Shown one piece after another: positions 5,550-64,000 of a stretch of DNA of 64,000 bases. Made by a program: the position numbers and the translations under genes. Below the pieces are notes generated by a model that was not told the DNA's origin, ran no database searches, and worked only from the letters and a program-made list of their open reading frames with translations. The stretch's first letter is position 1; each line of letters opens with the position of its first letter. The stretch comes from Octopus vulgaris (lineage: Eukaryota), in contig OX597822.1 in the NCBI GenBank assembly GCA_951406725.2, forward strand, positions 108,748,001 to 108,812,000, given 5' to 3'.

Positions 5550-6110
5550 TGAGGTTGAAATCCTGCGTTTGTCTGAGTGTTGGGTCTTTTGGGGCCTTGG
5601 ATAAGATGCGGATGTTACGTTGACCCAGGTTGACTCCATGTCGGTAGAGTATGGAGGACTGTTTGTTTTGTCGTCCTATTGTCTCAAATGGTAATTTAGT
5701 CGTTCTGCAATGCTCCTAGATGTCTCCCCTATGTATGCCATGTTCATGTCTTTACAAGCATCTTCTATGCACCTTATGCCGTAAACTATATTTCTAGTTC
5801 TACAGTTAATGCCAGGGCTAACCTACATAGCATGCAGTTATCATTGGTGCATGTGGTATTCTCAAGGCGGTACGTCCTACATATGTCGTAATCTGACGGA
5901 GTTCCCTAGACTTTCAATAAACTTAATGTTAAGTTTGGTCTCCTTCAGGGCATTTCTAAAAGTTCTCCGTGTGTTGCGGCCTCTACAAACATCAGTCATT
6001 GATATTTGTCGGATTTATGCCACATGTTCGCGTTGTTTCCTTTGTCACAAATTATTTGTATCCTATTCCAGTCTTTGTTTCTATATCTAGGACAGGTACC
6101 ACTGGTATCA
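5550..6110 (-). pseudogene. Penelope-like element fragment, GIY-YIG endonuclease region
   Basis: Minus-strand translation CTNDNCMLCR...INCRTRNIVYGIRCIEDACKDMNMAYIGETSRSIAERLNYH: Cys linker plus GIY-YIG motifs, with stops. Confidence 0.8.
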
Positions 6111-7303
6111 TTACTTATAATGTTCTCTAATTTCCTTCTAGCACAAATAAGAACAACACAAATAGGGACAACACAAAGGAATTGACACATAAGGTGTAAT
6201 GTAAAAATCGAGTAAGCAATAAAATAACAATGAGAATTAAGAAGAAAAAAATTCTAGCAACTAATATCTCCGATATGGAGGAGTTCGACTCAGAGCCGAC
6301 TAAGGTACCCAAAATATCCTGGTCACCCCACCAGCCAAGGGCACCTCAAACAGGCACCCCACTTCCTCTCAAATGCTGTGGCCTACAAGCGAATGTTCAG
6401 AATAGGCCCATTCACTCAGGCCATATTTGCTCACATTCACTCACATTTCAACAAAGTTACTGGGAGTAGTACTCCGCTTTCACCTTCACTTTCCTTTTCA
6501 AGTGGAACTTGGGAAAGTAGGTGAGGGCTTGGCTGAAGAGAAAAGTATCTGTCTTTATCCCTCCTTGTCTCGTCCATTACATTACATATTTCGCTATAGC
6601 CACCAGGCAAGAGAAATACTCCATTTTCCTCCCGGCCAAAAGAAGACCGCAGGGCGATACTCACTATGAACTTGGCAGATAGCCGGATCCGTCTTACTCA
6701 CGTCAACAACTGCTCAATAAGGCTTCTCAAGACTGCATTGCCCAAAGACCAATGAAGTGCATGCAGAACAGTTTCGTCACCATCCGCACATCTCTGACAG
6801 ATCCATCTGATGGCACGTCCGTGCCTGTGGAGGTTGTCTCGATCTCGGTGAGCACCCCTTTCCCGATGACAGTCCCCGACCAGGGATTTCTGGGAGATTT
6901 CCATAGGCTCTGACCCAAAAGAACCAGTCAATGGATTCCTTCTGACACCCAGAATCTCACTGAGGATGTTTGTCACTCTTCCCCACCACCAATCCTCTAT
7001 AGAACTGCAATGTGGGACTTCTAACGGCCCATTGCCTGACTGTTAGAGGACTGTAAGCGCTTGTCGATTCTCCAGGTGCCATGCGCCTATTCTCGGTCTA
7101 CGTTCGATCCAGGTCTGTAGCACTTTCAATGGGACAAACTGTCTCATAAACGGTAACCACAGCTGCTCATTATTGAGGAATGGCTGGAGATGTCGTATCC
7201 TCAGCGCATGTCTGCGAATCCTTAGTCAGAGAATTCTAGGTCTTTCACTCAGTACCTGCTGACAGCAGATGGTCTGTCGAACTAGCGGAACACATCGGTT
7301 CCA
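6110..7303 (-). pseudogene. Tx1/L1-clade ORF2 C-terminal fragment plus 3' UTR
   Basis: Minus strand WNRCVPLVRQTICCQ...RRHALRIRHLQPFL and CQRCADGDETVLHAL (L1/Tx1 C-terminal Zn motif CxxC..ETxxH). Frameshifted; T-rich 3' UTR. Confidence 0.75.
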
Positions 7304-14897: not shown

Positions 14898-15055
14898 GAG
14901 TGGCTGTGTGGTAAGTAGCTTGCTAACAAACCACATGGTTCCGGGTTCAGTCCCACTGCGTGGCACCTTGCGCTAGTGTCTTCTGCTATAGCCCCGGGCC
15001 GACCGATGCCTTGTGAGTGGATTTGGTAGACGGAAACTGAAAGAAGCCTGTCGTA

Positions 15056-42946: not shown

Positions 42947-43015
42947 CTGTTTTATAAAACAGGAGTGGCTGGGTGGTAAGTAGCTTGCTAACAGTTGCTT
43001 CTGCGCATGTGCGAG

Positions 43016-43052
43016 TCAGTGTTGTGTTTGGCACTGAAGCGGTGAAGACGTG
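43016..43052 (+). promoter_or_regulatory. Candidate internal Pol II promoter (Inr TCAGT + DPE-like AGACGTG)
   Basis: TCAGT at 43016-43020 and AGACGTG at 43046-43052, i.e. +29 from the Inr A, one base off canonical spacing. Confidence 0.35.
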
Positions 43053-43613
43053 CTTTTGAAGCCGTCTTGAATTGAAAACTTTGGAAGCCCCATGTAAGGT
43101 AAGATTCTGTTTTCTGGGTCCAGTGGGAGTTTTTGTTGAGAATTGTTTTTTACAGGCAGGAAGTCCTACTGGATTCAGAATTCTGATTCTGCCGACATGT
43201 GGCAAATATATTTTTCTCGCTGAGAAAATTTTGGGGGGGCGTATCCCTCTTCGATAAATTGAGTGAATATTTTTCTCACGTAATTGTGAGAATTGTATTG
43301 TGCTGTGAAGAACTTTTATGAATTGTGAAAACTACTATATAGGGGAGTATTTTGCCTCCGAAGTTTGAACAATTTTTACCAATTTTACACCAATTTTTGT
43401 GGAAGTTGTGCGATCCTGGTTCAATTTAGGCCGGGAGTACCAAATGGCCAGAAGGATTTTGCTGTGTTATTGACTTTCTTTTTAACTTTATTTGACTTTC
43501 CTTTTAACTTTATTTGACTCTCTCCTTTTTTAACTGTGACTTTCTTCGGATTTCCTTTTCTTCTCGTTTTTTAGTTTTATTCTGAATACATTTAAAAAAA
43601 ACAAAGAAAAAAC

Positions 43614-44854
43614 ATGGCAATGAAAAATAACAAAATTTTGGAGTGGGAAATCATACCGCCTAAAAAGTTGTTAAAAGACCGTGAAGATAGGACGGTGGTG
43701 TTGAGAACCTACTCCAAGGCACTCGACATCATCGCCCTATTCGAAAAGACGGCAATTGAAAAGGAGTTGGAAGAGTATTTGCCAACAATTAAATTCAATT
43801 CCAGGGGTGTCAAATATGCAACGGTGTGGTTGCTATTTGACACCCCTGAAGAGGCTTGCAAATTTGCTAGCAAACCCCTGGAGGGTAAGGAAATCTTATT
43901 CCTGCCCACGTACAAAAAAAAGAAATTGATCAAAGCTTGGATCTGCGGGCTGCCACCCGACATAGAACCCGAGTGGATAGAGGAGACTATCCGCCGGGGT
44001 CTGGGTGGCAGCGAAACTAAGCTCCTTAATGTAAAAGTTCTTCCTGCGGCTGCTTGGGTTGGGTCAAAAGCAATTTTGACCCTGTGGACCCAATCAGCCA
44101 ACCTGGTTCTTCCAGATTTTTTGAAAATGGCCGGGTGCAGGTACCCGGTGATGCTTGAGGGTCGCCCCCCCCTAAGAGTCATCGGTGCTTGGAGTCCGGC
44201 AACATAAAGAAGAACTGTCCCCGGGAACAAAATAGGATCCCGGAACAGTTAAGTAAAACCCCTCTAGAAGAGGGAATGATAACGGCCGATAAAGCAGAGG
44301 ACTCCTCAAACAGAGGCCGAAAGAGGAAGGTGAGCAACAATGGGTGCTCACCAAAGGATAATAGGGATGAGGAGAGGAAGGCGAATCTTCCAGCCACGGA
44401 GGAGACGCACCCTCCCTCAGTTGAAATGGGAAAAATAAAGAAAAAGAGGAAGAAAAACGGGACATTACCGGCTGTCAGTGTAGCACCGGAATGTCCCGGA
44501 ACTGCGTCGGTTAGGGTTGTGCCACCGACAAGAGAAGGAATACCGTTGGCGGGAACTGTGCAGCCAACGAAAGAACTGAACGTATTGGTCCTCTTCTATA
44601 GAGGAGGAGAAATTGAAAAAGTGATGGAAGAGCACTACAAGGGAGCACCTTTAGCCTTCACACAGGACCCCGAATGGCCTCCGCAGGTAGCTGTGGAGGC
44701 CGTGGCGTTCGACGTGACGCTTGGGCTAAAGGAGCTCAATGAAGATTATAACTTGGTCCCGGGCGACGCCAACTCGGAACTTGATTACGTTCTGAGGGAG
44801 GCGTGGTTGATGGTGGAGGGCGCGGGCACAAGCTATTTCGAGGCCGATATGTAA
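43614..44854 (+). CDS. Gag/ORF1-like nucleic-acid-binding protein (RRM-like + degenerate CCHC knuckle + basic tail), frameshifted at a C8 run
   Basis: ORFs 43614-44207 and 44189-44854 join at 44165-44172 to read EGRPP-K-SHRCLESGNIKKNCP (CX2CX4HX4C with C>S and H>N). Homologous to the 62703-63822 protein. Confidence 0.7.
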
Positions 44855-44870
44855 TTATTGAACTGTTATT

Positions 44871-45018
44871 ATTAGTAATGGACTGATAAGTCCAAAAATT
44901 GAAAAATTGTAAGAGGATTAATACCTCGTTTTGTGTTTATTTTTATTAATAATGGACTGCTAAGTCCAAAAATTGGAAAAATTGTAAGAGGTTTAATACC
45001 TCGTTTTGTGTTTATCTT
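44871..45018 (+). repeat. 74-bp tandem duplication in the element 3' UTR
   Basis: ATTA.TAATGGACTG.TAAGTCCAAAAATTG.AAAATTGTAAGAGG.TTAATACCTCGTTTTGTGTTTAT twice. Confidence 0.85.
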
Positions 45019-45325
45019 TAAAAAGAACAATGTTTTAGAGAAGCGAAAGTCGGCGGGCGCTTTTTGTCTTCTCCCATCCTTATCATCTTTCTTTCATTAT
45101 CATTCACTTCATTAATGTCCTCGTCCAGCCCGCAAAGCTAACTTAATCTGTGTACTGCCTTTATGGGAAATGTTTTGAAATAAAGTAGCTTGCTAACCAG
45201 CCATATGGTTCTGGGTTCAGTCCCACTGCGTGGCATCTTGGGCAAATGTCTTCTGCTATAGCCCCGGGCCGACCAATGCCTTGTGAGTAGATTTGGTAGA
45301 CGGAAACTGAAAGAAGCCTGTCGTA

Positions 45326-45408
<83 letters not shown>

Positions 45409-45775
45409 GTGTTTGTGTGTCTGTGTGTCTGTGTTTGCCCCCCTAGCAGTGCTTGACAACCGATGCTGGTGTGTTTACGTCCCCGTCACCTAGCGGTTCA
45501 GCAAAAGAGACCGATAGAATAAGTACTGGGATTACAAAAAATAAGTCCCGGGGTTGATTTGTTCGACTAAAGGCTGTGCTCCAGTATGGCCGCAGTCAAA
45601 TGACTGAGACGAGTAAACGAGTAAAATAGAGAGTAAAAGAGTAAGAATGGTGGGTGGAAGCTTGATTGTAAACGTTTGTTTTGAGAGAACCATGTTGATA
45701 AGTGAAATAAGCAAGATCCTGAAACTTTTTCATCCCAAAGATTATGGTTCAATACACACACACACCTATATTACA

Positions 45776-47809: not shown

Positions 47810-47873
<64 letters not shown>

Positions 47874-47892
47874 TTACATACAAACATATATA

Positions 47893-48015
47893 CAGTAATC
47901 CCTCCGCTATCGCGTGTGTGGCGTTCCTAATCTCACAGCGATTGTTTAAGATTCGCAAAGTAGAAAAGGTACTGTATTGTATATTTCTTATTGTCATTTT
48001 AATAATTTGTATATT
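47893..48015 (+). mobile_element. Tigger/pogo-like DNA transposon end, interrupted by the LINE
   Basis: TA|CAGTAATCCCTCCGCTATCGCG...CGTTCC, a TA-flanked CAGT terminus. Confidence 0.5.
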
Positions 48016-48079
48016 ATTACCTGGAAAATATGAAGGCCGACCTAAGCCAGGAGATCCAGCGAGCCATCACCAACCATCT

Positions 48080-51000
48080 ATGCAAATCACAAGGACCACT
48101 CACCCATTACCAACTTCCCTTACCTCGACATTCCTGTTAAATGTACGTGGCATCAACCCATCAATTATTGCCCAAAAATGGAAGATCCCATATATAGAGA
48201 GTTGGCTTGCCGAAATGGCACATTGCTTCCCTTTCTTTATCCTTACCGAGACTCACCTGAACAACACCCATATAGACGCAGAGGTGAAAATAAAAGATTT
48301 CACCATTGTTCGTGCGGATCGCACAGACCGAAATAAGGGAGGGACAGCCATCTTTATCCATGACTCCTTTTCACTTGATGCCAAGGACACATTTTCCAAT
48401 GGCTACTGTGAATCGGTATCAGTATACAACAAAGCCAAGGACATAACCATTGTTGGTCTTTACAGGCCTCCCCAGGCACCTCTAAAGTACTTTGAAGAGT
48501 GCCTTAGCAAAGTCAAGTCCTTCCTTCGGAAGTACCACTCCGGAAACATAATAGTGATGGGTGATTTTAACCTCCCTCATGTGAACTGGCCCACAAATAC
48601 TCCGAAGTTAGGCAAGTGCTCTACATCAGATAGGGCAGCAGCAGAACTGCTCTTTAATCTGATGGATGAGTATTTCCTGACTCAGCTAGTGCTTGAACCA
48701 ACGAGACAGAATAAAACGATCTTGGATCTGGTACTGACCAATCACTCTAGCTACGTTCACAGCATTTCAGTCGAAAAAACTCTCCTCTCAGACCACGACA
48801 TGGTACTCTGCAATCTTAATTCCCGACGTATAAAAACCAAACCAGCCAATCCCACTCCATGGCACCCATTTGACAACATAAATTTCCACAAAGCGGACTG
48901 GGGAACAATCAGAAAGGATCTGTCTTCCATCGACTGGTCTTTTACTCTCAATTCCCCTCATATTGAGACCGCGTGGCAGCACTTTGAAACCATTGTCACC
49001 GACACATGCTCTAAACACGCTCCCAAGAAATCTACTAACACAAACAGAAACCGGCTCCCTAAAAAGAAAAAAACACTCATCAGGCGCATCAAAAGACTCA
49101 ACAAAAAAATCAACCAATTAAAATATTCCCACACGCAACATCCACATTCAACAACAATGAAAAGACTAGAGCTGGAAAAACTTCATCTGCAGACTAACAT
49201 GAAAACCTCCATTGAAAATCAAAGAGCTGTGGAGGAACAATGGGTAATCAAAAACATCAAACAGAACCCAAAAGTGTTCTATTCTTATGCAAATAAGCAT
49301 AGAACCACTGTCTCACCTATTGGGCCATTGATTGATGAAAACGGCATTCCCCAACACGATGCTAAAGAAATGGCAGAAATACTGCAGAAACAATATTGCT
49401 CTGTCTTCAGTGTTCCCACTGATATTGATGTGAGGGAAACGAACGAAGCTGACTCCCAACACAAAATCGCAGACATAACCTTCACTGCCACCGACATCGT
49501 AGCAGCAATAAATGAGGTCAAACATTACTCCGCTGTAGGCCCTGATAGATTTCCCGCCAGTCTCCTGAAGGAATGTAGATATCAACTTGCAGTCCCTCTG
49601 ACCAACCTCTGGAGAAACTCGTTAGACGCAGGTTATATACCGAAAAAGTTTCTATCCCAGTCGGTCATCCCGGTTTTCAAACAGGGAAACAGATCCCTCG
49701 CAGTCAACTATCGCCCAATCTCACTCACCTCCCACATCATTAAAGTGTTTGAAAGAGTGTTAAGATCAAGGATAGCTGACTTCCTGGAGACCCACAAACT
49801 CCTAAATTCAAATCAACATGGCTTTCGCTGTGGCAGGGACTGTCTAACACAGCTCTTACACCACATTGAAGATGTACTCAAAGCCTTGGGAACAGGTTCG
49901 AACTCTGACGTCATATACCTTGACTTCAGTAAAGCGTTCGACAGGGTAGACCATAACATCCTACTCTCAAAATTGGCAAATGTTGGAATCCGTGGAAAAG
50001 TTCTACACTGGATTCAGTATTTCCTAGCGAATAGAACACAACATGTTGTAGTTGATGGAGTCCACTCAAACCCAGCAAAAGTCACCAGCGGTGTTCCCCA
50101 GGGAACTGTTTTGGGTCCGCTACTCTTCATAATTTATGTAAACGACCTTTCCAGTGTCGTACATCACTGCAAAGTGAAAATATTCGCTGATGACACTAAG
50201 CTCCAGCAAATCGTCAATGAAGAAGCAGACCGAACTCAACTCCAGTCTGACCTATATGCTGTGAGTCAATGGGCAGACAGAAACAAAATGCAACTGAATG
50301 AGGGAAAATTTGAGCTGATGCATTTTGGAAGAAATTCCTCACTAAAACAACCATACTCTCTTCCTTCAGGGGAACCGCTCACAGCCTCTAACAATATCAG
50401 AGACCTGGGTGTAATTGTTGATGACGATCTCAGTTGGAGTGCACACATCAACAAGAAGGTCGATACAGCTCGTAGGATGAGTTCCTGGATCTTAAGAACT
50501 TTCCGGTCCAGAGAACAAGGTGTCATCATACCACTTTTTTCATCCTTTGTACGGCCACACCTTGAATACTGCTGCCCACTGTGGTCTCCTCACACAAGAC
50601 AAAACATCTCCAGAATTGAGTCACCCCAGAGGGCTCTCACTAAACAAATTGAAGGCATGGCTGCTCTCGACTATTGGGATCGCCTTAAAGCCTTGAAACT
50701 TTACTCCCTCCAGCGTCGCCGTGAGCGGTACATCATTTGTACGATGTGGAAAATATACCGCCAACTTTGCCCAAACGACCTAAACATTAGCTTCAAGGTT
50801 CATCCGAGACTTGGACCACGGGCTATACGTCCCCTGCCAAATTCAAGATCACAACATACATGTACACTGCAACATAATTTCTTTTCCTCAACAGGCCCTG
50901 CCCTATTTAACATTGTCCCGAGGGAGATCAAAGAGGAAAAGGATCCCATCAACTTCAAACAGAGTCTGGATAGATTCCTTCAAAGAATACCAGACAAGCC

Positions 51001-51088
51001 ACCCATAATTGGATACAACTCACCCAACAAGAACTCACTACTTGAACAAAACTGGATACAACTCACCCAACAAGAACTCACTACTTGA
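48080..51088 (+). CDS. LINE ORF2: apurinic-like endonuclease + reverse transcriptase (~1002 aa from ATG 48080)
   Basis: APE motifs LNVRG, LTETHL, YRPP, GDFN, LDLVL, SDH; RT motifs YRPISLTS, QHGFR, YLDFSKAFDRV, GVPQGTVLGPLLF, FADD; CR1-type C-terminus RPHLEYCCPLWSP, LQRRRER. The track start at 47918 runs into flanking DNA. Confidence 0.95.
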   Translation: MQITRTTHPLPTSLTSTFLLNVRGINPSIIAQKWKIPYIESWLAEMAHCFPFFILTETHLNNTHIDAEVKIKDFTIVRADRTDRNKGGTAIFIHDSFSLDAKDTFSNGYCESVSVYNKAKDITIVGLYRPPQAPLKYFEECLSKVKSFLRKYHSGNIIVMGDFNLPHVNWPTNTPKLGKCSTSDRAAAELLFNLMDEYFLTQLVLEPTRQNKTILDLVLTNHSSYVHSISVEKTLLSDHDMVLCNLNSRRIKTKPANPTPWHPFDNINFHKADWGTIRKDLSSIDWSFTLNSPHIETAWQHFETIVTDTCSKHAPKKSTNTNRNRLPKKKKTLIRRIKRLNKKINQLKYSHTQHPHSTTMKRLELEKLHLQTNMKTSIENQRAVEEQWVIKNIKQNPKVFYSYANKHRTTVSPIGPLIDENGIPQHDAKEMAEILQKQYCSVFSVPTDIDVRETNEADSQHKIADITFTATDIVAAINEVKHYSAVGPDRFPASLLKECRYQLAVPLTNLWRNSLDAGYIPKKFLSQSVIPVFKQGNRSLAVNYRPISLTSHIIKVFERVLRSRIADFLETHKLLNSNQHGFRCGRDCLTQLLHHIEDVLKALGTGSNSDVIYLDFSKAFDRVDHNILLSKLANVGIRGKVLHWIQYFLANRTQHVVVDGVHSNPAKVTSGVPQGTVLGPLLFIIYVNDLSSVVHHCKVKIFADDTKLQQIVNEEADRTQLQSDLYAVSQWADRNKMQLNEGKFELMHFGRNSSLKQPYSLPSGEPLTASNNIRDLGVIVDDDLSWSAHINKKVDTARRMSSWILRTFRSREQGVIIPLFSSFVRPHLEYCCPLWSPHTRQNISRIESPQRALTKQIEGMAALDYWDRLKALKLYSLQRRRERYIICTMWKIYRQLCPNDLNISFKVHPRLGPRAIRPLPNSRSQHTCTLQHNFFSSTGPALFNIVPREIKEEKDPINFKQSLDRFLQRIPDKPPIIGYNSPNKNSLLEQNWIQLTQQELTT

Positions 51089-62089: not shown

Positions 62090-64000
62090 CCATTTAGGCG
62101 ACAGAGGCAAACGTCTATAACAAAATATTAGCAGCAAGCTCAGGAGACACCCTCACAGAACAGGAATACTTCTGATGATATGTGAACACAAGCCTCCGCT
62201 GCACAGTGTCGGGAGACACCTGAATCAGAGCATAGGACGAATCGATTACAAGATTAGCTCACAAGAATCTCCGAAACACAGCCTCAGGTGATAATGTCTA
62301 ACCTCAGTTCAATTGACTTCATTTTCCAGTGAGTAAACAAGAACGGCAAACATTTTCGTTTGCCAGTATACACCTTGAAAAAAAGTCTCTAACAAAACAT
62401 TAGCAGTAAGATCAGCAGACATCTTAACAGAACACGTATATACTTGATGATATGCGAACATGTGCCTCCGTCACACGGCCTCAGAAGGCACCTGAAACAG
62501 AGCAAAGGATGAATCGATTAGATAATTAGTACACAGTCGACGGTACGGTGACCACAGCTCGCTGTGGACGACGTAGAGGCGACGGTACACAGCTACCGAC
62601 CCACAGTCAACGCTACGGCGACGAGAGGAAACCCTTACTTCCAGCTAGACATCAGGCCACGACCATTTACACAACCAATGTGAATAGACATTATTTACAT
62701 ATTTAATTCGGGTTGTCCTCTGGAGAGGGACTCTCCACCTTTTCTTCACATAGGGTCGGAGGTGGCAAGTCTTGAAAAATGGATTGATTAATATCCAATC
62801 TTATCATCGACACCGACATTCTATACGCGTTAAGTAATACATTATGAGTCTTTTTATCAATTTCGTTGAACTCGTAGTTCTTATATTTATCAGAAAGTTC
62901 TGCAATCCTCGTGGCTGATCTTTTCGCTTTTAATTCTCTCATTAAATCTTCATTTTTGGTTTGTCTCTTTTCGCATTTTTTTTTTTTTGGTGTTAGTTCG
63001 ACCTGTTTTTGTTGATTTGAACTTTCCAGTTTTCTCTTGATTTTAGTTGCTTTCTTTTCTTCTGTTTCTCTCTCTCCCCCCCTCCTCCACTTCCTCATCG
63101 GATTATTTCTCACCGTCTCTACAGTTTTTTTTTTATATGGCCCAGCTGGCCACACTGGAAACATTGGGGCTTACGGCCCTCGACGAATACGTTAAGGAAT
63201 TCCTCTCCAATTTCTATTTTCTCCTGTAACTGTTCTAAAATTGACGGTTCTGCTTCTATTAGGAGGTGAACCGTTTGATCGGTCCAATAAGCCTTTTCTG
63301 TGATGGTAGCCTGAACGAGTGTTATATTATCTTCTTTTTCGCCAGGACTGCCTCCATCAATCACATAGGGTTGACTTGAGGTGAGACCCTAGGTATACGT
63401 ATCTTTGACGTCCTCATTTCCATGTATATTGGAATTAAAACAACGTCCTCCGTTTGTTAAGATTTAACTGAGTGCATTTGTGCAGTTTCTATATCTTTTA
63501 GTCGTACTTCGATAGTACCCAACTTCCCTCTGGCTAGGTTTGTGATATCCTGCCAGATGGGTTTCAAGCACTTCTCTCTTCGCTCACCTGATCATGTTTT
63601 TTTTCCTTTTAGACAGTAAGATTTAAAATTAATTGTTTTTCTTTTTTCTAACATTAATAGTTCTTCCGGGGATTGAACTTTCACAACACCGTTTTCAATT
63701 GTTATCATATCTTTGTACTTTATCAGGTCATTTTTGTTTATCAACAGCTGGCGCGTTCCACCTCCAGCCGCTGACGCAACAATTCTTTTTTGTTTAATTT
63801 CTTCTGTTTGAAGGCTTTTCACGTCAATATTCCTCTTTTCAAAAGTACATATTGGGGAAATTCTTTTTCAGAAAAATCCAAAATATCGCTAAATATTAAA
63901 CTTCCGATCTTTTTTGCCTCCCTGTTGGTTGACGACTCTTCGCCAGACGAAGGTACACTTTTCGGCATCTTGCCAGCAATTAATGTCCCCCCCCCCCCAC
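62090..64000 (-). mobile_element. Second ORF1-only gag-like retroelement (decayed; 5' end near or beyond the window edge)
   Basis: Gag-like pseudo-ORF followed by ~600 bp of non-coding DNA with a diverged ~150-bp repeat (62114-62262, 62388-62534), and no RT downstream. Confidence 0.65.
62703..63822 (-). pseudogene. Gag/ORF1-like protein with CCHC zinc knuckle
   Basis: EKRKTINFKSY...EKCLKPIWQDITNLARGKLGTIEVRL...VVLIPIYM...VEGRKPQCFQCGQLGHIKK(fs)NC, then a basic/coiled-coil tail. Contains stops and frameshifts. Confidence 0.8.

Follow-up and report, generated by a model that had tools for sequence, protein, structure and literature searches.

How is a retroelement copied if it codes for no reverse transcriptase (RT)? 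The question is raised by an element at positions 42993..45182 of a 64,000-nucleotide stretch of Octopus vulgaris DNA (contig OX597822.1, 108,748,001 to 108,812,000, forward strand; here called the window), which carries open reading frame 1 (ORF1) of the kind found in L1/Tx1-type long interspersed elements (LINEs) and no ORF2. An initial annotation of the window had described an exact 15-bp repeat and a split short interspersed element (SINE) at the edges of the element, with no endonuclease (EN) or RT remnant inside. All of this was confirmed. Two 100% identical copies of a 15-nt direct repeat, AAGTAGCTTGCTAAC, at 42978-42992 and 45183-45197 bracket 2,190 bp; a SINE-like repeat is split around the element; and tblastn with the ORF2 of the partner element described below found no EN or RT match within it. 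On comparison of sequences, we put at roughly 85% the probability that the window copy is a damaged ORF1-only element at a fixed position in a SINE head, likely mobilized in trans by the ORF2 protein (ORF2p) of an autonomous L1/Tx1-type element inserted at the same site.

The window element belongs to a multicopy ORF1-only family

The family of the window element was labeled famA. A genome pattern search for the exact last 28 nt of the element returned 216 occurrences. Near-full-length copies with 89 to 97% identity were found on many contigs among the best 40 of 3,202 candidates in a DNA search, and the best 150 of 12,188 candidates in a protein search were all 82 to 100% identical. Among named proteins, the nearest come from Octopus and Argonauta. 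The copies are interstitial and lie inside SINEs. Ten loci (L008, L041, L047, L052, L054-L057, L059, and L102) hold intact ORFs of 413 to 414 amino acids, and the same element body is joined to at least six different 5′ ends.

The first 100 end-pattern matches listed included 24 famA-type ends, of which 18 made up a further sample picked by position; the other six were already among the loci studied. Fifteen of these 18 copies were about 2 kb long with both ends; the other three were L099 (106 bp, both ends), L100 (5′ truncated), and L110 (a fragment of a related family). ORF2 was found in 0 of the 18. Likewise, 0 of 20 loci of divergent ORF1 type, 14 of which had a visible target junction, had ORF2 downstream in the same orientation. 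The non-autonomous, ORF1-only L1/Tx1-type lineage proposed in the initial annotation is upheld by the number of copies, by the lack of ORF2 at both sets of loci, and by selection on ORF1 (see below). These results support a multicopy ORF1-only lineage that is neither a one-off deletion nor a processed pseudogene.

ORF1 modules have been shuffled among families. At L061, one N-terminal type occurs on two different C-terminal regions, and L108 and L112 have a 69%-identical 5′ half fused to a 95%-identical famA 3′ half. Exchange of the 5′ untranslated region (UTR) was also seen in L062 and L063. The 106-bp element at L099 (2775-2880, oriented) consists of the famA 5′ end plus the last ~35 nt, with both junctions at the target, and may mark the minimal cis signals.

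Insertion occurs at one position in an abundant SINE head

AAGTAG directly follows 211 of the 216 exact 3′ ends. All 29 loci that have a 3′ end run on into the same SINE, and the 5′ part of the SINE is upstream in 28 of 30 loci; of the other two, one has a different element in front of it and the other is truncated. Exact empty targets numbered 58,747, and a control pattern gave 0. Read by eye, the insertion site falls between A-box-like and B-box-like motifs of the SINE head. Two 5′-truncated relatives of 155 and 369 bp (L090 and L093) lie at the site with a 10-nt duplication. L061 (G000:C4:151500500-151510400) holds five ORF1-only elements from at least three families, arranged head to tail within a single SINE head, with the target motif between each pair of elements. 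Comparison of 68 filled sites (famA in all but three) and 53 empty sites showed two linked haplotypes of the host SINE, and the 5′ subfamilies of the element were found in both. Insertion is sequence specific at one position in an abundant SINE head, and the 15-bp repeat is the same in nearly all copies because the target is fixed. Whether such a pattern reflects targeting or hitchhiking was asked earlier by Kojima for SINEU-3 (PMC4494074; this and the papers cited below were consulted as excerpts), and the same question is considered for the octopus element below.

Two empty copies of the SINE target are present in the window, at 14906 (+) and 2827 (−). Elsewhere, at G000:C1:111116890-111116969, two matches to the end-plus-target pattern lie on opposite strands, 25 bp apart.

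An autonomous L1/Tx1-type partner uses the same target

A pattern for the shared 3′ end plus the target had 695 exact matches (control, 0); a pattern that left out the last bases of famA gave only 2 sites and did not reveal a partner. Twenty loci were then picked by end variant from the end-plus-target matches. Among them, L078 and L079 have 1,150-codon ORF2 frames, L080 and L081 have degraded ORF2, and L091 has an ORF2 3′ fragment; 12 of the 20 were ORF1-only-type matches without ORF2, and 3 were 3′ fragments. L078 is 5.45 kb long and has the same flanking motif. Exo_endo_phos, RVT_1, and zf-RVT domains were identified in the partner ORF2, and its best PDB match was L1 ORF2p (E = 1e-66; R2, 1e-20). 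The partner belongs to the L1 group: it has an apurinic/apyrimidinic endonuclease (APE), an RT, and a C-terminal zinc-binding domain and is nearest to L1 ORF2p. A homologue search returned almost only unnamed proteins and no named Tx1 reference for an RT tree.

In a search with the partner EN, more than 80 of the best 150 scored matches were at least 93% identical, and 14 had frames of at least 1,133 amino acids. The many near-identical matches with long frames indicate that the helper (the partner) and the rider (the ORF1-only element) are both young. Among 21 ORF2 loci, those of the partner lineage (73 to 100% identical) end at the target in all 10 cases with a readable 3′ end; four more distant loci (59 to 66%) end away from it. 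The initial annotation had looked to autonomous 3′ ends for a link with the 3′ UTR of the window element. Such a link was found in the last ~37 nt, the only sequence common to rider and helper, and did not extend to a ~160-nt 3′ UTR block that the ORF1-only families share among themselves and the partner lacks. Helper and ORF1-only elements also occur in mixed head-to-tail arrays (L114 and L116). The partner ORF2p is very likely borrowed by the ORF1-only element.

One array, L116/L117 (G000:C1:223689310-223706780), has seven ~2-kb ORF1-only units followed by one autonomous element. The reading frame appears to be interrupted at one common point in several of its units, and some of the array may accordingly stem from duplication or read-through and not from separate insertions. 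A sister L1/Tx1-type family (L121, L122, and L123) has an EN 59 to 66% identical to that of the partner. For two of its members, L121 and L122, the sequence past the end is AAAGAAATCCTTTCGG and not the SINE target; this flank is possibly another specific target or a tandem junction.

Given the same family and the same helper, the rider ORF1 protein (ORF1p) could have been kept for a role in trans, in which it helps or competes with the partner particle. The mixed arrays resemble those of HeT-A and TART, HeT-A Gag directs TART Gag (PMC5537684), and proteins of this sort have been proposed to multimerize with those of the helper (PMC5786205). However, rider and partner ORF1s are just ~30% identical, and target choice in this group has been ascribed to the endonuclease (PMC4494074). 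We therefore consider a trans role unlikely, although it deserves to be kept in view, and prefer an ORF1p that serves its own RNA.

ORF1 is under purifying selection across ORF1-only families

Intact ORF1 is laid out as two predicted RNA recognition motif (RRM) folds (amino acids ~15 to 185), a CCHC knuckle (amino acids 188 to 201), a basic low-complexity linker, and a variable C-terminal region. In an AlphaFold model, residues ~21 to 160 mostly had predicted local distance difference test (pLDDT) scores of 63 to 88, and the C-terminal half scored below 50. Foldseek with this model returned tandem-RRM proteins (best E = 5e-5), and VIA-align matched the halves of ORF1 to single RRMs (Z 8.1, root mean square deviation [rmsd] 2.6 over 79; Z 8.3, rmsd 2.8 over 75). 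The RRM-like pattern reported in the initial annotation agrees with these predictions, with reservations about the model and the fold that are given below. Atlas neighbors of ORF1 carry zf-CCHC and ZCCHC3 RNA-binding domains (0.90 to 0.92). Pfam found nothing in the two broken frames of the window copy and only a sub-threshold zf-CCHC (E = 0.008) in intact ORF1.

The ratio of nonsynonymous to synonymous substitution rates (dN/dS), to which the initial annotation had also pointed, was calculated by the Nei-Gojobori method over ~203 codons from open frames only. Among 8 ORF1-only sequences (28 pairs), dN/dS was 0.08 to 0.29, and dS between families was 1.0 to 2.7. Between famA subfamilies, dN/dS was 0.08 to 0.22. 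ORF1 is under purifying selection across several ORF1-only families. The rider ORF1 is 29% identical to the partner ORF1 (E = 1e-21), and the ORF1s of ORF2-bearing loci are 22 to 38% identical to that of the ORF1-only elements. A tree of 27 rows placed the ORF1-only proteins together with P0001, the nearest database protein, in one clade (100/100, stem 1.57) and the ORF1s of ORF2-bearing elements in a separate clade (96/93); the tree was rooted at the midpoint only, and its deep nodes are weak. If the lineage arose by internal deletion from an autonomous family, that family may have died out or may lie outside the sampled helpers, from whose ORF1s this clade is separate.

These data bear on the possibility that ORF1-only copies are short-lived products of recurrent internal deletion in autonomous elements, with selection having acted while ORF2 was present. 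HAL1 arose several times from L1 (PMC5753468), and a rare autonomous source could escape searches that score the best 150 candidates. Recurrent deletion is nevertheless very improbable in view of the single clade of ORF1-only proteins apart from those of ORF2-bearing elements, the low identity of the latter, the lack of ORF2 at all 20 divergent loci, the 3′ UTR block that is common to the riders and missing in the partner, and the low dN/dS between famA subfamilies too. A standing ORF1-only lineage fits these observations better.

The left copy of the target motif is a hybrid

The initial annotation had taken the 15 bp for an ordinary host target site duplication. This reading is not supported: the target is fixed, and the left copy is partly element derived. 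Left and right copies were compared at 58 single famA insertions with both ends, of which 46 were scored and 12 were set aside (11 with indel tags and one short copy). At position 13, the right copy had T and the left copy had A in 11 of 14 cases; of the three exceptions, one was L036 and the others belong to subfamilies with T in the tag itself. At positions 10 to 12, variants of the host were missing on the left in 8 of 9 cases. Subfamily indels were found on the left only (a 1-nt deletion in 5/5 copies and a 1-nt insertion in 4/4 copies). L059 (position 7) and L039 (position 11) have the host variant in both copies of the motif, and L036 has a 16-nt host duplication and then a separate full tag beginning AAG. 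A C/T variant in the upstream SINE tracked the 3′ host subtype (P = 0.015, n = 37). The left copy is a hybrid of host duplication and element tag. Since its distal part follows the element subfamily and not the host SINE, the element RNA probably has a target copy at its start.

The 5′ UTR of the window copy holds GCGCATGTGC (43003) and TCAGT (43016), which we take to be NRF1-like and Inr-like motifs, respectively, and has many runs of four or more T from 43054 on. Such runs stop RNA polymerase III (Pol III), and their position just after the 5′ end argues against Pol III transcription. R2 offers a precedent for the tag: target-derived 5′ sequence on its RNA, from upstream 28S, is proposed to anneal and to give uniform 5′ junctions (PMC3774820).

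We also considered a hitchhiking composite, in which one or a few insertions into a SINE were amplified as a long SINE-plus-insert unit and the fixed site was simply inherited. The flanks are the same SINE in all copies, full-length copies dominate the position-picked sample, and the truncated famA copies L027 and L100 are without the SINE 5′ half, all as a composite would have it. However, every 5′ subfamily occurs in both host haplotypes, the left and right motif copies disagree in one direction, unrelated autonomous and ORF1-only families are found at the same site and stacked in tandem, the truncated L090 and L093 carry their own duplication there, and the T runs right past the 5′ end would halt Pol III. 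The composite is largely refuted by these results and retains a very slight probability; repeated targeting of the SINE head is preferred. Processed pseudogenes of a ZCCHC3-like host RNA-binding gene, suggested by ZCCHC3-like clusters among the Atlas neighbors (0.90 to 0.91) and by the annotation of P0001 as a host gene model, can be dismissed almost entirely on the fixed target, the missing poly(A), the several families with swapped 5′ UTRs, the tandem arrays, and the homology of ORF1 to the partner ORF1.

Element families and SINE subtypes

Three types of empty target were found, with mean pairwise divergences of 0.138 (AAGAAG..TTCCC, n = 7), 0.124 (AAGTAG..TTACC, n = 22), and 0.086 (AAGTAG..TAACC, n = 10). 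Six of the 20 divergent ORF1-only loci were in an AAGAAG-type host, 5 of them with a readable AAGAAG-type left junction. TTAC tags were found on older autonomous copies, and the young families had mostly TAAC tags and mostly TAAC hosts (43/68). Older families occupy older-looking SINE subtypes with matching tags, which fits a succession. An arms race between SINE and element is speculation, because elements may just use whichever subtype is abundant and least decayed.

We propose the following cycle for the preferred, trans-mobilized ORF1-only lineage. An RNA polymerase II transcript would start with a ~15- to 16-nt target copy (AAG...) and end in ...AAATA without poly(A), and the element's own ORF1p (two RRMs plus CCHC) would coat it in cis. 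Partner ORF2p would bind the shared 3′ ~37 nt, nick the bottom strand at GGT^AAG, and reverse-transcribe the RNA. The top strand would be cut ~10 to 16 nt downstream, and the tag copy in the complementary DNA would anneal to the overhang and prime the second strand, yielding uniform, mostly full-length 5′ junctions. Each insertion would recreate the target, so that arrays could grow, and new masters would renew the tag from the SINE subtype they occupy, so that the lineage would follow the SINE succession. We lean slightly toward a wider picture of a three-tier parasite system, in which the SINE head would be a renewable landing pad of a sequence-specific L1/Tx1-type lineage, and an old, independent ORF1-only radiation would ride on that lineage with a deeply divergent ORF1p of its own. 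The RNAs of rider and helper alike would bear a 5′ tag copied from the target; the tags would template the junction and would have been updated with the SINE target, from AAGAAG..TTCCC to AAGTAG..TTACC and then to AAGTAG..TAACC, possibly in an escape-and-chase race. Such a race is conceivable because each insertion splits the internal promoter of the SINE.

Several points weigh against this account. Most loci were picked by score, which biases the sample toward full-length copies. Because only ~37 nt are common, the case for the partner as helper comes from the shared location, the joint activity, and a short motif; by blastn, the rider-partner 3′ similarity is short (E = 1.5, 76%). Truncated famA copies L027 and L100, without the SINE 5′ half, do not pass the truncation test. 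The upstream-linkage test is weak (P = 0.015; 0.083 for TAAC-tag copies alone). A tRNA origin of the SINE head found no backing: ARAGORN called 0 genes in 7 loci, and there was no Rfam tRNA match. The SINE age order is based on only 10, 22, and 7 copies. The mean pLDDT of the ORF1 model is 51 (9 sequences), and RRM Z-scores of ~8 can be reached by a common fold.

Anatomy of the window copy and neighboring elements

The window copy is a damaged member of the ORF1-only family, 97% identical to its closest relatives (Table 1). From the ATG at 43614, its frame runs to 44207, and a second frame spans 44159-44854. The frameshift in a C8 run noted initially is present; the run exceeds that of most copies by two C and shifts the frame, and C8 is confined to this copy, with C6 in 44 of 56 copies and C5 in 11 of 56. 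The CX2CX4HX4C knuckle claimed for the element is intact in the other copies but broken in this one, with Ser for the first Cys and Asn for the His. In addition, the window copy has G instead of C at 45167, inside the conserved 3′ motif. Contigs from public runs have the family bases at the knuckle changes and at 45167; these contigs span the ORF in four runs and are uninformative on transcription, on start sites, and on C8 as an assembly error. The AATAAA in which the 3′ UTR was said to end is indeed there (45179-45184), but it spans the 3′ junction, and its final two A are part of the target repeat. The window element has no poly(A) tail. No ribozyme or other Rfam family matched at the 5′ end, and neither element end folded better than its shuffles (z = −0.49 and 0.94). 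A GCC/GGC hairpin was predicted in the folds of only some family ends and counts as a sequence motif only.

Table 1. Features of the window copy and of the SINE that it interrupts
Feature	Position	Strand	Remark
5′ part of host SINE head, A-box-like TGGCTGGGTGG by eye	42960..42977	+	Same sequence upstream in 28/30 loci; host derived
Left target-motif copy	42978..42992	+	Hybrid: proximal ~9-11 nt can be host derived, distal part likely the 5′ tag of the element RNA
5′ UTR, one of several exchangeable family 5′ ends	42993..43613	+	
ORF1, 413-414 amino acids when intact, broken here	43614..44854	+	
C8 run	44165..44172	+	Frameshift in window copy only
Zinc knuckle	44177..44218	+	Cys->Ser 44177 and His->Asn 44201 in window copy
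75-bp tandem duplication, 3′ UTR	44869..45020	+	1 to 3 units among copies
3′ UTR block common to ORF1-only families	45025..45182	+	77-80% identical; absent from autonomous partner
Terminal ~37 nt common to partner, GCC-N4-TGGC-AAAT-N6-AAATA	45146..45182	+	Likely ORF2p recognition signal
Right target-motif copy, host SINE sequence	45183..45197	+	Insertion point T^AAG
Remaining host SINE: B-box-like GGTTCAGTCC by eye, body, (TA)n(TG)n, tail with GAGTAAAA repeats	45198..45647	+	

The initial annotation had nominated a relic at 6110-7303 as the source of ORF2p. This relic (−) is an old L1/Tx1-type ORF2 3′ fragment. With 37% identity to the partner ORF2, no shared 3′ motif, and closest relatives at only 67 to 76% identity, it was rejected as a helper. 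A 1,071-amino-acid RT ORF at 47873-51085 was also rejected as a helper, being 25% identical to the partner RT region and not at the target. The element at 47810-51088 (+) has an intact 1,092-codon frame, endonuclease and RT domains, (TA)n flanks, and a 43-bp tandem repeat at its 3′ end; it is a second, apparently young LINE unrelated to the ORF1-only family. At 63131-63816 (−) there is a frameshifted ORF1 relic, 34 to 35% identical to the partner ORF1 (E = 5e-32), which continues into an open frame at 62703-63170 and is another Tx1-type element near the window end.

Relation to known elements

ORF1-only LINEs are known as HeT-A (Jockey), HAL1 (L1), and Ag-Sponge (CR1) (PMC5786205, PMC5753468, PMC5537684). 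The octopus family probably works like HAL1 or HeT-A and is targeted like Tx1, with a probable helper and an element-borne target tag. The sequence-specific SINE site, the actual partner, the tandem arrays, the 5′ tag, and the tracking of SINE subtypes had all been missed in the initial annotation.

Like HAL1, the octopus element is a non-autonomous L1-group retroelement that codes for ORF1p only (PMC5753468, PMC5786205). Unlike HAL1, it is sequence specific, has no poly(A), and bears a 5′ target tag, and its ORF1 is of the RRM-RRM-CCHC type and ~30% identical to that of its current helper. Mammalian L1 has a coiled-coil type of ORF1, a poly(A) tail, and dispersed, non-specific insertion. The tail and the dispersed insertion of a strict HAL1 are both lacking here, with 211 of 216 ends at one target. 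HeT-A, with TART and TAHRE, resembles the octopus system in its Gag/ORF1-only coding, purifying selection, RT-bearing co-targeted partner, and head-to-tail arrays (PMC5537684). HeT-A, however, is of the Jockey clade, and its target is the chromosome end, not a sequence; it also serves the host. The octopus family is L1/Tx1 type and inserts at a site inside a SINE, and no role for the host is known. In place of a Jockey-clade Gag and a telomeric location, it has an L1-group partner and interstitial copies.

Tx1-clade elements (Tx1L in Tx1D, Keno in U2, Kibi/Koshi, and Tx1-Mar with SINEU) are APE type and have fixed multicopy targets, and a non-autonomous rider can share the target (PMC4494074). 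The octopus partner likewise inserts sequence specifically into a multicopy target (10/10 loci with a readable 3′ end). The targets given in that excerpt are DNA transposons, long terminal repeat elements, small nuclear RNA and 5S genes, satellites, and microsatellites, not a SINE head, and the SINEU rider is non-coding, whereas the octopus rider codes for ORF1 (PMC4494074). R2 differs in its restriction-like endonuclease and hepatitis delta virus-like ribozyme; in the octopus element, the tag equals the duplicated region, and there was no ribozyme match. Ag-Sponge, a CR1-derived element of Anopheles, is also an ORF1-only non-autonomous LINE, but it belongs to the CR1 clade, and its excerpt mentions no fixed target (PMC5786205). 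Repeat annotation of O. vulgaris lists 80 L1-Tx1 families, in the excerpt without target analysis (PMC13282606). Literature searches, at the level of result listings and the excerpts cited here, showed no ORF1-only element with a fixed SINE target and no cephalopod SINE-targeting Tx1, although a Repbase or Dfam consensus may exist; the excerpts of PMC9115989, PMC10294476, PMC4758252, and PMC3747384 contained nothing on SINE-targeted ORF1-only elements.

Why the ORF1-only LINEs of three clades keep ORF1 can be addressed in the octopus: rider and helper are both present in many copies that are young and intact, and their ORF1s are only ~30% alike, so that the roles of ORF1p in cis and in trans are directly testable. 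The polymorphism of the SINE subtypes separates RNA-derived from host junction bases, so that second-strand priming by an APE-type element can be read from natural copies. The partner is also relevant to site-specific RNA-templated insertion, its ORF2 being compact and sequence specific and its 3′ signal short. The family itself exemplifies a retrotransposon lineage that has the promoter region of another retroposon as its target, interrupts that region, and apparently keeps pace with the subfamilies of that retroposon.

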